Below, piece after piece: positions 17,481-45,215 of a stretch of DNA of 64,000 nt (positions within the stretch are counted from its first letter, which is position 1; each line of letters begins with the position of its first letter). Below the pieces are notes generated by a model that had not been told where the DNA came from, did not search any database, and saw only the letters and a program-made list of their open reading frames with translations. Origin of the DNA: a virus (taxonomy: Duplodnaviria > Caudoviricetes). The translations under genes were made by a program, and so were the position numbers. Location: positions 146,532 through 210,531 of IMG/VR virus record IMGVR_UViG_3300031414_000007. The stretch is one strand, 5' to 3'.

Positions 17481-17487
17481 AAATTAG
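17481..17487 (-). promoter_or_regulatory. CTAATTT late-type box
   Basis: Intergenic, 24 nt before 17457. Confidence 0.55.
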
Positions 17488-21090: not shown

Positions 21091-21099
21091 AAAAATTAG
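21091..21099 (-). promoter_or_regulatory. CTAATTTTT late-type box
   Basis: Intergenic, before 21060. Confidence 0.6.
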
Positions 21100-25089: not shown

Positions 25090-25098
25090 AAAAATTAG
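25090..25098 (-). promoter_or_regulatory. CTAATTTTT late-type box
   Basis: Intergenic, before 25062. Confidence 0.6.
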
Positions 25099-29144: not shown

Positions 29145-29152
29145 AAAATTAG
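29145..29152 (-). promoter_or_regulatory. CTAATTTT late-type box
   Basis: Intergenic, before the endolysin. Confidence 0.6.
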
Positions 29153-30044: not shown

Positions 30045-30052
30045 AAAATTAG
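30045..30052 (-). promoter_or_regulatory. CTAATTTT late-type box
   Basis: Intergenic, after a terminator and before 29997. Confidence 0.6.
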
Positions 30053-36953: not shown

Positions 36954-37151
36954 TTAGGCAAAGCACATTTCCCAGCGTGGTACAACGCGGAAGAACTGCT
37001 TAAAGTTGGACGGCGGATTCTTCTTGATTGATTCAAGTTTCTGTTCCACTACGTCATAATCTTTTATGCCACTCTCTACGGTGTGAGTGGTGAATGTACC
37101 GTCAGCCTGAATCAAGTCGGCGACAACACGGTAGCTTGGTTTACGAAGCAT
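36954..37151 (-). CDS. Hypothetical protein
   Basis: 65 aa, AGGAG RBS and CTGTAAACA motif upstream. Confidence 0.6.
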   Translation of the reverse strand: MLRKPSYRVVADLIQADGTFTTHTVESGIKDYDVVEQKLESIKKNPPSNFKQFFRVVPRWEMCFA

Positions 37152-37191
37152 CTATTCTCCTGTGTAAAAATTTTCTCGTTCTTCTGAATTA

Positions 37192-37200
37192 TGTTTACAG
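37192..37200 (-). promoter_or_regulatory. CTGTAAACA box upstream of the 65-aa ORF
   Basis: One-mismatch motif. Confidence 0.55.
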
Positions 37201-37580
37201 TTTACTGTGAGTAGTCACACAAGGATAAAGTCAGACAAATCTTAAACTCCAATAGGCTCTCAATCAAGAACATATTGGAGTCCACCCTAGCCAGATGACG
37301 GTCTAGCCAGGGCTTTCTCCCCGTGTCTTTCAATTGCACCGACACGGTAGCGCTCGCGGTCTTACGCTCTCTGCGGCTTGCGAACATATCGGCAGGTAGC
37401 AGGGTTCGCAGCCTAGAGCAGCCGCTTTCGGCCATTAGCGATAACGCGGTGTTACGCTAGTTGGCCTGACTCTGTGGCCGAGTCTGTACAAAAAAGAGTT
37501 CGGCCTATCCCCAAATTCGGCAAAAGAAACAGGCCGAACTAAACAGTCAGCGCAAACTCCCTATGCACTGTTTTGTACTG
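37200..37580 (-). ncRNA. Candidate large structured non-coding RNA (about 380 nt)
   Basis: At least eight stems in a gene-free gap; G-U pairs fit the minus strand; CTAATTT motif at 37585-37591 just upstream. Confidence 0.55.
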
Positions 37581-37584
37581 TAAC

Positions 37585-37591
37585 AAATTAG
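37585..37591 (-). promoter_or_regulatory. CTAATTT late-type box before the candidate ncRNA
   Basis: No ORF follows; the structured region begins about 7 nt downstream. Confidence 0.5.
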
Positions 37592-37619
37592 AAACATCCT
37601 GCAATAAATCAGACAATTC

Positions 37620-38207
37620 TTAGTCTAACATTGGAATAAGATTTTGCAGGAAATGCTCACGATCAAACGACGAAATTCTGTGCGGATGATCGATGTGCAT
37701 GTTCCATGGTTTGTTAAACAACAGGACGCTACGAGGCAGCACCAGTTGTTCACCGACGCGAGTGAACTTGTCACGCACGGCAGTAACAGGATTATCATCG
37801 ACAAGGACGTAGGTACCTTCGCCGTGTACTTCGTTCAGGTACGCAATCTTGTCAGGATGCTGGCGGCTATCCAAAACATGAATGTGATCGAACAACGACA
37901 GGTGCTTCTCCAAAGACTTGCGCGTGTTGCGCTCACCTTTATCATGATAGCCTCGATGCGTACAAATGCCTGCACTGAAACCATCACGTACCAACATCGC
38001 AACTGTCTGGATGAAGTAGTCACGCATGTTGGCTTCAAGCATAAAGCGTCCGTCTTCCAACATATCAATAAACGGCTGCTTACCATTCTCAGGCGTGATG
38101 TAGGAATCGGTGCCTGGATAGATCCCCCAGTTCATCAGATAACACAACATAAAGTTATGCGTGTCGAATGCTGTGTCGTCCATGTCGAAGAAAATCTTCT
38201 TAATCAT
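37620..38207 (-). CDS. HAD-family 5'(3')-deoxyribonucleotidase-like phosphatase
   Basis: Motif I FFDMDDT, motif II CTHR, K, motif IV LVDDNP, FNKPWN. Confidence 0.8.
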   Translation of the reverse strand: MIKKIFFDMDDTAFDTHNFMLCYLMNWGIYPGTDSYITPENGKQPFIDMLEDGRFMLEANMRDYFIQTVAMLVRDGFSAGICTHRGYHDKGERNTRKSLEKHLSLFDHIHVLDSRQHPDKIAYLNEVHGEGTYVLVDDNPVTAVRDKFTRVGEQLVLPRSVLLFNKPWNMHIDHPHRISSFDREHFLQNLIPMLD

Positions 38208-38551
38208 TAGTGCCTCGTACTTTTGACAACCAAAGGAATGTCATTGATGAAAGCGAGAGTTAGCAACTCACCGTTATGGCGCAATCGCATTTCATCGGCA
38301 TTCATTACGACAACAATATCGGCGAGAGGATCTACCTTGAACGTTGGGACTTCGATAAGCTGTGCTTCCACTTCGCTTTCTTCGTCGTCAACAACGTAAT
38401 AGCCTCCATACATTAATACAGTGTCACCCGAATCTACAAGATGACCAACGATACACTCGTCACCATCAATAACCATATGCAGTGGTTGATCGATGTAGTA
38501 ACCGTTACCGTCATCTGAGTCGAACTCAAAGTCGAAGTCCTCGTCGCCCAT
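38207..38551 (-). CDS. Acidic hypothetical protein
   Basis: 114 aa, coupled to the HAD gene. Confidence 0.6.
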   Translation of the reverse strand: MGDEDFDFEFDSDDGNGYYIDQPLHMVIDGDECIVGHLVDSGDTVLMYGGYYVVDDEESEVEAQLIEVPTFKVDPLADIVVVMNADEMRLRHNGELLTLAFINDIPLVVKSTRH

Positions 38552-38554
38552 AGT

Positions 38555-39130
38555 CTATGCCCTCAAATCAACCAAGATAGATGCAGACAAATCTCGGAGC
38601 ATGTCACGACCGAGAGGTGTGTACATTGTTTGGGAAACTACAATTCGTTCAAGGAAGAGGCGAGAACTGATAACGTCCTGCCCTGTGCGCTGTTGAACGA
38701 AATCAATGATGGCTGATGGTGGTTGAATGAGGAACGTTAAGATCTCAGCGTCGTGCAGGACGCTACCCATCTCTGTAACAGGACGCATCTCTGTTTCCTG
38801 ATCGAGAATGTATGAGATCACACGGTCTTCATTACCAATATTGCGATGTGTTTTAAAGAACTTGCGAGCAGCACTCACGGTGCGCATAAAATCGTAGTCC
38901 GAAGAAGTCGGCATACGGAGAAAGAGTGAAGCTAAGAGCAGGTTTATTTCTAACTGCGGGCCTTGCTCGATGTTTAACATGGCATGAGAGGTCAGTACCA
39001 CATCTAACGAGAAGTCACGAGTGTAGAGCGGGTGAGAGTTCGCTGTCTGATCAAAGTAGTCGAGAGCCATGTGCAGCCCTCGACGTTTTAACAGGTGCTC
39101 TGCCTTGATACGGTTCAGGCGGTGCATCAC
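38555..39130 (-). CDS. Hypothetical protein, possible degenerate HD-domain fold
   Basis: Helical; LLLASLF and LHDAE at HD-like spacing, but the HD dyad is missing. Confidence 0.4.
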   Translation of the reverse strand: MMHRLNRIKAEHLLKRRGLHMALDYFDQTANSHPLYTRDFSLDVVLTSHAMLNIEQGPQLEINLLLASLFLRMPTSSDYDFMRTVSAARKFFKTHRNIGNEDRVISYILDQETEMRPVTEMGSVLHDAEILTFLIQPPSAIIDFVQQRTGQDVISSRLFLERIVVSQTMYTPLGRDMLRDLSASILVDLRA

Positions 39131-40101
39131 TCGGCGCCACGAATCTCTTTGAGAGAGTTCTTGATCGCTTTACGCAGCGTCTTACCAGTGTCGATGCCGT
39201 CGATGTGACGAGCGAACACATTCGCAAACAACGTGGTAGGATTCTTCATGATTGCTTTGTCGAGATCAGGACGACCCTCAGCAATCTGAATCTCACCAGG
39301 CCAGAGTTCAGCAACTGCCTGACTGTCGTTAGCGGCAATCAGCTCCAGCTCACGGACCGAGATACTGTTCTGGCGAGCAATCGTACGGAAGATCATGTCA
39401 ACGAAAGGAAGCAGGTCTTCGGACACAACGTTCTTCACGTCTTTCGCATCACCAGCTCGCTGGAAATCTTCCAGCAGACCTTCGAGGTGAGTCTGCGTGA
39501 TCTTCTGGACGTTACGCAGTTTCTTGAACAGCATCATCCAGCGCACTTTGCGTTTGGAACTCAGCAGGTGAGTCCACACTGATTCGCCTAAGGCAATCAT
39601 CAGTTTGTTGTAGACGTCAACCGATACGCAATCACGATCAACAAAGACCGTGATCTCGTCATGCCACTCGTCCTTCTTGAACTTGGTTCGGAAGGAGTGA
39701 GTCTTCGACCCTGACTGCTGGACGAAGTTGATTTGCTTGCAGCGACGAATAGCTTCCTGAAGGCCATACTTAGCAATCACCTTCGGAAGTTTTTTCACTG
39801 CCAGACGACAGGCTTTAGCGACTTCTGCTTCGCGCCCGTAGAGAGCGAGGCGAGGCAGACCACCATAGACAGGCATTGATGCGTAAGGTCGGACAGTGAC
39901 GCCACACACGGACATACCCGGCTCAGGGTCTGGACCCAAGACCGCAAGCACGTCACCTGCCTTAGGACTGAACTTGATCGTTTCTGTTTCCGGCGCACCA
40001 AGCGTGTTAGCCAGAATGCCAACAGTGTTGCCGGTTGCCAGAACAAGATGATTCTTATTACCCTGCCTTACGACAAGGTAATCATTTTCACTATGTTTCA
40101 T
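39127..40101 (-). CDS. Hypothetical protein
   Basis: 324 aa with phage-typical codon usage. Confidence 0.7.
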   Translation of the reverse strand: MKHSENDYLVVRQGNKNHLVLATGNTVGILANTLGAPETETIKFSPKAGDVLAVLGPDPEPGMSVCGVTVRPYASMPVYGGLPRLALYGREAEVAKACRLAVKKLPKVIAKYGLQEAIRRCKQINFVQQSGSKTHSFRTKFKKDEWHDEITVFVDRDCVSVDVYNKLMIALGESVWTHLLSSKRKVRWMMLFKKLRNVQKITQTHLEGLLEDFQRAGDAKDVKNVVSEDLLPFVDMIFRTIARQNSISVRELELIAANDSQAVAELWPGEIQIAEGRPDLDKAIMKNPTTLFANVFARHIDGIDTGKTLRKAIKNSLKEIRGAE

Positions 40102-40109
40102 AACGGCCT

Positions 40110-40628
40110 TTAAAAGATTGAGTCAGCGATATTGTAGGTGTGGACTTCCGCGGTATGCTGACGGAAGATACGACCTTCGGATTGCTCGAACGTTGCAGGA
40201 CGCCAGTCTTCTTTGGCTTCAATGGAGACGATGACTTGCTCGTCCCACATATCACCATCTTCGAGAGTCCCGGCGATCATACGAAGCGCAGCAGGTCGGT
40301 CTTTGCCGAGATGCGCCAGCTCCGCAATCATGACACGCGGCTTGGTACGATCACCAAGTTCATCGAGCGCCCAGCCAAGCTCAGACAGAGAACGAATCTG
40401 GTACGCTTCGACTTGAGCGTTACCACGATACTCGTCTGGTCCGAAATAAACAATTTCAAAATCGTTGACGTCGGTTTGACTGACAAAGAAGTGAGGTGCG
40501 TCCACCATAATAGAAGGTGAGGCGCACATCTGGAGCATGCCCATATATGGATTAGGAATCTCACGGGCTTCTACCGAACAGGACTTCCCAGCAAAACTTT
40601 GGATTATGCTGTGTGCGAGATTATTCAT
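40110..40628 (-). CDS. Hypothetical protein
   Basis: Start moved to ATG 40628 (MNNLAHS) after GAGG; removes the overlap with the 64-aa ORF. Confidence 0.6.
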   Translation of the reverse strand: MNNLAHSIIQSFAGKSCSVEAREIPNPYMGMLQMCASPSIMVDAPHFFVSQTDVNDFEIVYFGPDEYRGNAQVEAYQIRSLSELGWALDELGDRTKPRVMIAELAHLGKDRPAALRMIAGTLEDGDMWDEQVIVSIEAKEDWRPATFEQSEGRIFRQHTAEVHTYNIADSIF

Positions 40629-40635
40629 TGTAACC

Positions 40636-40830
40636 TCAGTTCTCAGGAGTAGGTTTGGCAGGGCTTGGCGTATACATAAAACCATAGCCCACCATTTTGT
40701 TTTGTTGACGCTTTGCTTGCTGCTTGCGTTTGATCTCGGCGTCACGCTTGTCCAGCTCGTCAAAGATACCTACGCGGCGAGCATAACGAAACTTCGGATG
40801 TACGGAGATATGTTTGACGATAGCTGTCAT
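40636..40830 (-). CDS. Small basic hypothetical protein
   Basis: 64 aa, GAGGA RBS and CTGTAAA motif upstream. Confidence 0.55.
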   Translation of the reverse strand: MTAIVKHISVHPKFRYARRVGIFDELDKRDAEIKRKQQAKRQQNKMVGYGFMYTPSPAKPTPEN

Positions 40831-45208: not shown

Positions 45209-45215
45209 AAATTAG
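45209..45215 (-). promoter_or_regulatory. CTAATTT late-type box
   Basis: Intergenic, before 45185. Confidence 0.55.

Follow-up and report, generated by a model that had tools for sequence, protein, structure and literature searches.

A structured RNA with covariation support, probably a stand-alone non-coding gene, behind a late-type promoter box of Enterobacterales jumbo phages

Described systems and searches for known RNA classes

Large structured RNAs with no assigned role are uncommon, and their study has repeatedly opened up new biology, as ribozymes, riboswitches, pRNA and RNA cages show. The pRNA of phi29-like podoviruses measures 117–174 nt and forms a ring via interlocking loops. The ‘6S’ element at lambda PR'-tR' and the put elements of HK022 are small, act in cis and precede the late operon. 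CsrB carries roughly 18–22 GGA motifs. In bacterial RNase P RNA the conserved regions CR-I to CR-V are collinear, and CR-I and CR-V form the long-range helix P4. For ROOL and GOLLD, the formation of oligomeric cages is reported in a preprint (bioRxiv 10.1101/2024.12.08.627333). In reviews, phiKZ and PA5oct are the only phages for which non-coding RNAs are mentioned, and literature searches found no description of the RNA treated here.

This RNA is encoded in a 64,000-nt stretch of phage DNA (the window), part of a 210.5-kb viral contig with an estimated completeness of 79%. On sequence grounds, its source was assigned to an Erwinia jumbo phage of the Alexandravirus type. A scan of the whole window with Rfam 15 gave no match at the gathering score, and cmscan of a 581-nt region with all 4227 Rfam models at E ≤ 10 gave nothing better than E 0.58. 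The sub-threshold chance matches (RydC, ctRNA_p42d, Lambda_thermo) scored 15–19 bits against cut-offs of 48–50. The models covered RNase P RNA, tmRNA, group I/II introns, 6S, CsrB/RsmB, ToxI, pRNA, GOLLD, ROOL, riboswitches and ribozymes. ARAGORN found no tRNA or tmRNA gene in the window or in the 210-kb record. An initial annotation, made from the sequence of the window, had reported no signature of tRNA, tmRNA, RNase P or group I/II introns and had proposed a novel RNA. The first point was borne out by ARAGORN and the Rfam scan, and novelty agrees with the outcome at E ≤ 10, where, chance matches aside, no Rfam family was matched. In these comparisons the RNA appears as a previously undescribed family, and no relation to a curated one was detected.

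Further classes were considered individually. A CsrA/RsmA sponge of the CsrB/RsmB type was judged unlikely because the RNA carries only five GGA motifs, which is about the number expected by chance and includes three conserved in at least 17 of 19 sequences, where ten or more are required. No CsrA gene was found in the phage record (79% complete). A retron or other RNA associated with a reverse transcriptase was rejected, as the 210-kb, 79%-complete record gave no RVT_1 match and the neighbouring genes encode a HAD-like hydrolase and a clamp loader; Pfam searches of the same record for RtcB and Sigma70_r2 likewise gave no match. A small RNA acting by base pairing with phage mRNAs was also rejected: judged by the best duplex energies, seven conserved segments of the RNA paired with 248 phage start regions no better than shuffled segments did.

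The locus and its promoter boxes

The gap between the flanking genes (37152–37619, 468 nt) is unannotated, and every gene surrounding it lies on the minus strand (Table 1). The initial annotation had seen no convincing open reading frame in it. This was upheld among the relatives, in which no ORF was conserved by position or frame on either strand and none of the 22 annotated phages carries a credible gene in the gap. A 77-aa ORF (37202–37435, minus) was discarded, its position and frame not being kept in relatives and no Pfam match being found. Two small ORFs deposited in relatives overlap the structured RNA; they are probably spurious annotations. The RNA is present in a single copy in the phage genome.

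The HAD-like neighbour contains a DMDDT motif I and a VDDNP motif and looks like a nucleotidase-type HAD enzyme of the 5'(3')-deoxyribonucleotidase kind; sequence comparison with PDB and NCBIfam gave no informative match. The idea that it might be an RNA-end-healing partner of the RNA was dropped because the two motifs fit a HAD enzyme of this type.

Table 1. Features of the RNA locus in the order of transcription, with the stems that the initial annotation had listed (last column). Positions are those of the window.
Feature	Position	Strand	Remarks	Stem in initial annotation
HAD-like protein, 195 aa	37620-38207	minus	directly 5' of gap	
CTAATTT, class A (late-type) promoter-like box	37585-37591	minus	6 nt upstream of first P1 base	
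5' domain: P1, hairpin 1, hairpin 2	37486-37578	minus	consensus fold	
Closing helix P1	37578-37571 / 37493-37486	minus	invariant	37486-93/37571-78 (long-range pair)
Hairpin 1, conserved AUAGGGAGU loop	37570-37564 / 37554-37548	minus	3 double-change pairs	
Hairpin 2	37540-37525 / 37512-37497	minus	8 double-change pairs	37497-506/37531-40
U-tract directly 3' of hairpin 2	37490-37495	minus	6 U; partly shared with P1	
Middle domain	37366-37485	minus	includes GACUC/GAGUC and GGCC/GGCC stems	
GACUC/GAGUC stem		minus	invariant; in competition with GGCC/GGCC pairing	37468-72/37480-84
UAACAC hairpin	37458-37451 / 37445-37437	minus	middle domain	37436-45/37451-59
GGCCG/CGGCU hairpin	37433-37429 / 37424-37420	minus	middle domain	
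Middle-domain closing helix	37419-37415 / 37370-37366	minus	3 double-change pairs	
GCUACC-loop hairpin	37413-37404 / 37385-37375; invariant loop 37400-37395	minus	6 double-change pairs	37375-85/37404-13
GUAAGAC element, single-stranded	37359-37365	minus	precedes pseudoknot	
H-type pseudoknot	37321-37353	minus	helix A, helix B, A-rich third loop	
Pseudoknot helix A	37353-37350 / 37339-37336	minus	95.8-100% paired	
Pseudoknot helix B	37347-37342 / 37326-37321	minus	92-94% paired	37321-27/37341-47
GGAG(A)AAG linker, then hairpin H	37284-37320	minus	follows pseudoknot	
Hairpin H	37313-37302 / 37295-37284	minus	9/12 pairs double-changed (24 sequences)	37285-95/37302-12
Hairpin T	37244-37283	minus	ACUCCAA...UUGGAGU stem invariant; inner hairpin variable, covarying	37246-54/37273-81
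Conserved 3' tail AAGAUUUGUCUGACUUUA	37226-37243	minus	alignment	
CTGTAAA, class B promoter-like box of 65-aa gene	37194-37200	minus	3' limit of RNA gene	
65-aa protein gene	36954-37151	minus	directly 3' of gap	
Clamp-loader-like protein, 427 aa	35531-36814	minus	DNA_pol3_delta2/AAA	

Enrichment of 7-mers was determined upstream of 248 crude gene calls in the record, and CTAATTT and CTGTAAA were the two most enriched. CTAATTT had 14 of its 21 genome copies at most 120 nt upstream of a start codon, 10.7-fold over expectation. It stands 23–48 nt before start codons, often right after a terminator hairpin, and is limited to the large minus-strand gene block. We regard it as late-type because the genes for the tail sheath, a PAAR protein and the endolysin lie behind it; several large proteins of unknown function are encoded there as well. 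CTGTAAA was found upstream of start codons in 27 of 48 genome copies (9.1 times expectation), and it precedes the genes for DNA polymerase, sliding clamp, SbcD, primase, SSB, an HNH endonuclease and the clamp loader (36853). In the GenBank record of phage Lu11, the CTGTAAA before the clamp loader is labelled ‘putative middle/late promoter’. Two promoter classes are thereby mapped for the first time in phages of this kind, a late-type one with CTAATTT and a replication-type one with CTGTAAA.

The CTAATTT box at the RNA, which the initial annotation had placed about 7 nt before the first paired base and interpreted as a late-type promoter, was confirmed in its position, and the roughly tenfold enrichment, the structural and lysis genes behind the box and the use of CTGTAAA by replication genes bear out the interpretation. 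All 19 relatives share the box unchanged, and it also occurs in Yoloswag, SNUABM_5 and JA29. In the sense direction, the stop codon of the HAD-like gene is followed by CTAATTT (37591–37585), the RNA, CTGTAAA (37200–37194), and the Shine-Dalgarno sequence and coding region of the 65-aa gene. The RNA thus lies directly behind the late-type box and is split from the next gene by a CTGTAAA box. In JA29 the late box is followed by an RNA of only ~290 nt, which a strong terminator (GC stem and T9) separates from a CTGTAAAT box and the clamp loader; in JA11 (Salmondvirus, like JA29) a strong terminator likewise closes the RNA ahead of the next promoter. The gene downstream of the RNA varies by genus, encoding the 65-aa protein here and a transmembrane protein in Rivsvirus and Yoloswagvirus.

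Fold, conservation and distribution of the RNA

A blastn search with the gap matched 45 phage records, all of them Erwinia/Dickeya jumbo phages of 260–267 kb, with Erwinia phage pEa_SNUABM_30 (Alexandravirus) as the closest match (96.8%). In the most distant matches the alignment was limited to the gap, and the flanking genes did not align. The nucleotide identity of the RNA equals or exceeds that of the neighbouring genes; against SNUABM_25, for instance, it is 66.8% for the RNA and 59.5% and 49.5% for the flanking genes.

On the minus strand the gap folded with a minimum free energy of −168 kcal/mol (z = −5.87), compared with z = −3.78 for the plus strand. Nineteen homologous gaps were aligned, comprising this one and 18 from relatives in Alexandravirus, Sasquatchvirus (Y3) and the SNUABM_25/13 group. 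RNAalifold predicted 107 pairs in this alignment, 32 of them with compensatory changes, and a minus-strand consensus of about 13 helices. For the curated structure of 98 pairs, three short helices that were invariant or in conflict were dropped and a pseudoknot helix was added. Across the 19 phages 96.5% of its pair cells were canonical, compared with 33–45% in slid controls with the 3' partners shifted by 1–3 columns, although such cell counts overstate the number of independent events because the sequences derive from only about eight independent lineages. Compensatory double changes were found in 33 of the 98 pairs, against 5–10 in the slid controls. The curated structure contained 222 G-U cells but only 8 A-C cells. 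The selected molecule is therefore the minus-strand RNA, and neither the DNA nor the opposite transcript.

The 3' core of 136 nt, with the pseudoknot included, was evaluated in two sets. With 18 sequences, 96.3% of cells were paired and 13 of 38 pairs had changed on both sides, while slid controls reached at most 4 double-change pairs; with 24 sequences the values were 95.2%, 21 of 38, and at most 8. In neither set did any of 500 shuffles attain values this high. The fold of the gap, consisting of a 5' domain of three helices, a middle domain with several hairpins and the 3' core, is under selection.

All eight stems of the initial annotation were recovered in the RNAalifold and curated consensus of the 19 homologous gaps (Table 1, last column). 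Its assignment to the minus strand, drawn from two G-U pairs in what is now hairpin H, is borne out by the G-U to A-C ratio, and the syntenic gaps of relatives, which it had named as a source of covariation, provided it. Its wider claim of a functional structured non-coding RNA is in line with the covariation, a conservation at least equal to that of the flanking genes and the lack of a conserved ORF. Since P1 is invariant, covariation neither supports nor refutes it, and the same holds for the stems of GACUC/GAGUC and hairpin T, which are invariant too. Three features had not been listed in it: the pseudoknot, a terminator-like hairpin whose U-tract is reached after about 90 nt of transcript and, 3' of the RNA, a second promoter.

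The three-part fold of the 5' domain was also predicted for Y3, SNUABM_25 and SNUABM_5, and the domain folds on its own with a z of −5.35. In the core, the UAAGAC part of the single-stranded element is invariant in 24 of 24 family members from six or more lineages. After it follow four strands in the order A5', B5', A3', B3', with a helix A of 4–6 bp, a helix B of 5–7 bp and loops of 2–3, 1–3 and 7–10 nt, an arrangement that corresponds to a classical H-type pseudoknot by the defining features of that class. Both helices covary, changing on both sides across six phage genera. Helix A reads GCGC/GUGC or GCGC/GCGC in Alexandravirus, ACGU/ACGU in Y3, GGCGCC/GGCGCC in SNUABM_5, GGCGCG/CGCGCC in Yoloswag and GUGCG/CGCAC in JA29. 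Helix B occurs as CCGUGU/ACACGG, CUGCAC/GUGCAG, CCCUC/GAGGG, CCCGC/GCGGG and CCCAC/GUGGG. The loop of hairpin H, GACCGUCAUC, is conserved in the Alexandravirus, Sasquatchvirus and SNUABM_25-type lineages. Hairpin T is 98% paired among the 24 sequences and has five double-change pairs in its inner part. After the conserved 3' tail, positions 37225–37201 are poorly conserved. Across genera the elements of invariant sequence are UAAGAC, the GGAG after the pseudoknot and ACUCCAA/UUGGAGU, and GCUACC and GACCGUCAUC are invariant within most lineages.

A covariance model (R1) was built from the 136-nt core with helix A left out; helix A was still 95.8% paired in the 24-sequence alignment. R1 matched Yoloswagvirus (Yoloswag), Rivsvirus (SNUABM_5), Salmondvirus (JA29 and JA11) and metagenomic phage contigs (L090/L115 and L045/L120) with E-values from 1e-15 to 7e-6, and an Alexandravirus-like metagenomic contig (L126) with E 1.7e-33; three metagenomic phages are counted among its matches. 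The model accepted none of about 54 chance matches of a loose sequence pattern. PaBG and Lu11 are the nearest relatives outside the clade. No match was obtained in PaBG, and its syntenic place has no gap; Lu11 has no gap either, and its weak match (14.8 bits) was set aside as chance, since the signature motifs are missing and ORFs are overlapped. A pattern scan of the genomes of 185,579 species (one per prokaryotic species) gave 10 chance matches, none of which passed R1 (best E 0.016), and the RNA had no blastn match among 5,426 E. coli genomes. By these searches the family, which occurs in six or more phage genera, is confined to one clade of Enterobacterales jumbo phages.

Expression, competing readings and comparison with known systems

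Hairpin 2 lies about 40 nt into the transcript and has a covarying, GC-rich stem of 15 bp. A run of 6–12 U (6 here, the length being polymorphic) starts 2–3 nt after it, an arrangement kept in five of six genera, including Yoloswag and SNUABM_5. Hairpin and U-tract together look like an intrinsic terminator or attenuator; a simple terminator scan does not flag them because the loop exceeds 8 nt. According to the PaBG paper, phages of this group carry genes for sigma-70-like factors but lack one for an RNA polymerase (PMC7412058), so the host polymerase is expected to read intrinsic terminators. Situated some 90 nt after the promoter, the hairpin and its U6–12 could end most transcripts before the conserved core is reached. 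Four residues of the U-tract are able to pair alternatively with an upstream A-run, closing the 5' domain (P1), and products of ~90 nt and of full length may therefore both exist. In SNUABM_5 the closing helix is built from other bases and the U-run is unpaired.

Six runs recorded as RNA libraries contain part of the gap, and four of these libraries, from four studies, each yielded short contigs that map to the element. The U-tract is spanned by three of them (37380–37550, 37336–37560 and 37436–37622); one covers 37188–37343 with 99% identity, and one runs from the core into the 65-aa gene. As these are assembled contigs in which DNA carry-over is possible, they are a weak hint at a full-length form. 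For the adjacent 3 kb (37700–40700) no RNA-library run was listed, which is not evidence either way.

We hypothesize that the locus encodes a stand-alone, non-coding structured RNA on the minus strand, extending from about 37578 to about 37226–37201 (roughly 350–390 nt, both ends being inferred). This explanation accounts best for the data, and we hold it to be fairly probable, because the downstream gene changes between genera, a promoter lies in between and the JA-type unit closes with a terminator. The same observations (a downstream gene that varies by genus, an intervening CTGTAAA box and, in JA29, an intervening terminator and promoter box) led us to reject a cis-regulatory leader or riboswitch class. 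A cis-acting leader could still be envisaged, in which the RNA forms the beginning of late transcripts extending into the 65-aa gene and the clamp-loader operon and acts by attenuation at hairpin 2 and the U-tract, by processive antitermination or by protection of the mRNA 5' end. Such a leader would fit the terminator-like hairpin and U-tract that separate the promoter from the remaining RNA, the contig that extends from the core to the 65-aa gene, and the Alexandravirus type, in which no terminator was found between the RNA and the downstream genes. It would also fit Rivsvirus and Yoloswagvirus, in which no CTGTAAA box was seen between the RNA and the next gene and that gene has no obvious promoter box of its own. 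We nevertheless consider it unlikely. Besides the changing downstream gene and the strong terminator of JA29 and JA11, the 65-aa gene and the clamp loader here each have a CTGTAAA box, the putative attenuator precedes the most conserved part of the RNA (the 3' core), which is the wrong order for a sensor, and about 13 helices and a pseudoknot make the RNA larger and more complex in tertiary structure than known leaders of this type. Two separate units, a late small RNA of ~90 nt and a downstream structured element with an unrecognised start of its own, seem rather improbable. P1, hairpin 1 with its GGAGU loop, the terminator hairpin and the U-tail resemble the typical architecture of an Hfq-type sRNA, the 5' domain folds independently, hairpin 2 and the U-tract are kept in five genera, and the hairpin 1 loop is identical in Alexandravirus and Yoloswagvirus despite their divergence. 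Against this division, no promoter-like box of either class is present between the U-tract and the core, the JA-type phages lack the 5' hairpin 2 and have the core directly behind CTAATTT, the hairpin 1 loop has no antisense target among the phage start regions, and contigs from three RNA libraries span the U-tract, which argues weakly in the same direction.

Descent from a known class in strongly diverged form appears very improbable, whether from RNase P-like or other tRNA-binding RNAs with a T-loop or as an imitation of a type III antitoxin RNA. It would draw on resemblances between short strings: GGAGAAAGCCC, GUAAGA.CGC and GGUAAACUCC resemble conserved regions of RNase P RNA, and UGCUACCU resembles the ToxI repeat. 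The best cmscan hits, at E 0.58, were to unrelated small RNAs. Bacterial RNase P RNA was rejected, as the order of the motifs is not collinear and no covariance model matched; the CR-I-like GGAGAAAGCCC is the 5' strand of the local covarying hairpin H, not a strand of a long-range P4 helix, and the 210-kb phage record contains no tRNA genes. ToxI was rejected in the absence of tandem repeats and of a cmscan match. The least credible reading is a DNA-level element (an origin, a pac site or an array of protein-binding sites) or a set of functionless chance hairpins. The region does lie within a cluster of replication genes; the asymmetry of G-U over A-C cells, however, indicates selection on one RNA strand, 33 pairs carry compensatory changes, slid and shuffled controls do not reproduce the pairing, and a promoter box stands at the 5' edge.

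Returning to the stand-alone RNA, host RNA polymerase directed by a late factor of the phage would begin transcription about 6 nt downstream of CTAATTT. Some transcripts may end at hairpin 2 and the U-tract, near +90, and the others would become the full RNA. At late stages of infection this RNA may then work in trans as a folded scaffold or a decoy for proteins, with the invariant UAAGAC, GCUACC, GACCGUCAUC and GGAG elements binding a phage or host protein and not pairing as antisense. We favour a scaffold or decoy because of the size of the RNA, the core anchored by a pseudoknot, the loops and linkers invariant across genera and the lack of antisense targets; it is the most likely mode of action, at a little under an even chance. 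More specific versions are doubtful, namely a component of a late ribonucleoprotein (in packaging, assembly or the virion), a decoy against a host RNA-binding defence or nuclease, or self-assembly like that of ROOL and GOLLD; the initial annotation had suggested a virion or packaging component, a protein sponge or an anti-defence decoy as candidate roles. The RNA is well defined, with a promoter, a pseudoknot fold backed by covariation and invariant loops resembling binding sites. Since culturable phages of tractable plant pathogens (Erwinia amylovora, Dickeya solani) carry it, genetics, RNA-seq and pull-downs are immediately feasible.

Among known systems, CsrB/RsmB RNAs are of similar length, and the hairpin 1 loop and the linker after the pseudoknot each carry GGAG here; the RNA differs from them in its five GGA motifs and in having no Rfam match. 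With lambda PR'-tR' (‘6S’, Q antitermination) and HK022 put it shares a nascent RNA structure directly behind a promoter. The lambda arrangement, in which an intrinsic terminator within ~100–200 nt of the late promoter yields either a short RNA or read-through, would find its counterpart in the terminator-like hairpin. In contrast to those systems, the other CTAATTT promoters of this phage run straight into genes without such a hairpin, a conserved core lies beyond the terminator-like hairpin, and the JA-type unit ends in a terminator.

ROOL and GOLLD are likewise phage or prophage non-coding RNAs of several hundred nucleotides with many helices, a pseudoknot, invariant loops and no known partner or target. 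Differences from both are the lack of a sequence or structure match to their Rfam models, a length of ~350–390 nt compared with ~580–800, a position that is not beside tRNA genes (the record has none) and the restriction to one clade of Enterobacterales jumbo myophages. The analogy with phi29 pRNA, drawn in the initial annotation, holds in so far as both are phage-encoded, stand-alone structured RNAs and pRNA works within a protein machine and not by base pairing. There is no Rfam match to pRNA, and size, fold, phage type and promoter class are all unlike those of this RNA. If the RNA were an essential part of a late-phase ribonucleoprotein, it would represent a pRNA-like role in a completely different type of phage.

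Genes at the RNA locus and occurrence of the sequence

In all six genera (6/6), the gene for a 195-aa HAD-like protein lies directly 5' of the RNA. This protein matches PHROGs of unknown function and, more weakly, a PHROG labelled 'polynucleotide kinase'. PaBG and Lu11, the nearest relatives outside the clade, lack the RNA and have no 195-aa HAD-like gene at the corresponding locus. Small hypothetical CDSs overlap the homologous RNA in the deposited records of Yoloswag (gp204) and pEa_SNUABM_5 (pEa_SNUABM_5_00214); both are probably spurious gene calls. Among sequencing runs X1-X9, several 2019 runs of phyllosphere metagenomes contained the exact sequence and may be where the assembly came from; close variants were found in plant, soil and wastewater samples.

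Features at the RNA locus and promoter-like boxes, with window positions unless a locus handle (L019, Yoloswag; L020, pEa_SNUABM_5) is given
Feature	Position	Strand	Description
gp204	L019:3271-3435		small hypothetical CDS
pEa_SNUABM_5_00214	L020:3286-3411	opposite	small hypothetical CDS
195-aa HAD-like protein	37620-38207	minus	HAD motif I (DMDDT), VDDNP motif
Near-duplicate copy 1	37437-37458	minus	GCGUAACACCGCG; middle-domain hairpin
Near-duplicate copy 2	37350-37370	minus	GCGUAAGACCGCG; at UAAGAC element
CTAATTT box, examples	45209-45215, 30046-30052, 29146-29152, 25092-25098, 21093-21099, 17481-17487	minus	
Second box, examples	36853, 37194, 2990, 6419, 23129, 50741	minus	
Second box, examples	46208, 58750	plus	

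Repeated motifs and alternative pairings

The RNA contains an internal near-duplicate, and hairpin H (37313-37302/37295-37284) carries a third loop containing ACCG, GACCGUCAUC. The SNUABM_5 RNA has a CACCGUCAU loop at a different position within the molecule. All of these elements may be repeated binding modules. All bases of the segment GACUC-GGCC-ACA-GAGUC-A-GGCC (37463-37484, minus strand) are nearly invariant. Its possible folds are two alternative hairpins and another small pseudoknot, and because of this near-invariance covariation has no power to choose among the pairings. The T-run 3' of hairpin 2 (37490-37495; columns 135-146 of A1, the alignment of homologous gaps) ranged from 6 to 12 T among the close relatives SNUABM_1, AD1, SNUABM_2 and SNUABM_39, a variation in length that resembles slippage in a homopolymer, here within a terminator-like site.

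Promoter-like boxes

Throughout the whole record, CTAATTT boxes were confined to the large minus-strand block, 23-48 nt upstream of the start codon and often with G or CG directly 5' of the box. The genes downstream of such boxes include those for tail sheath, PAAR and endolysin. The box may serve as a late promoter read with a phage sigma-like factor. A second promoter-like box, consisting of an a/t-rich stretch followed by CTGTAAAT(A), was found across the record on both strands, 19-65 nt upstream of replication-gene start codons. The record of phage Lu11 also has this motif, with the annotation 'putative middle/late promoter'.
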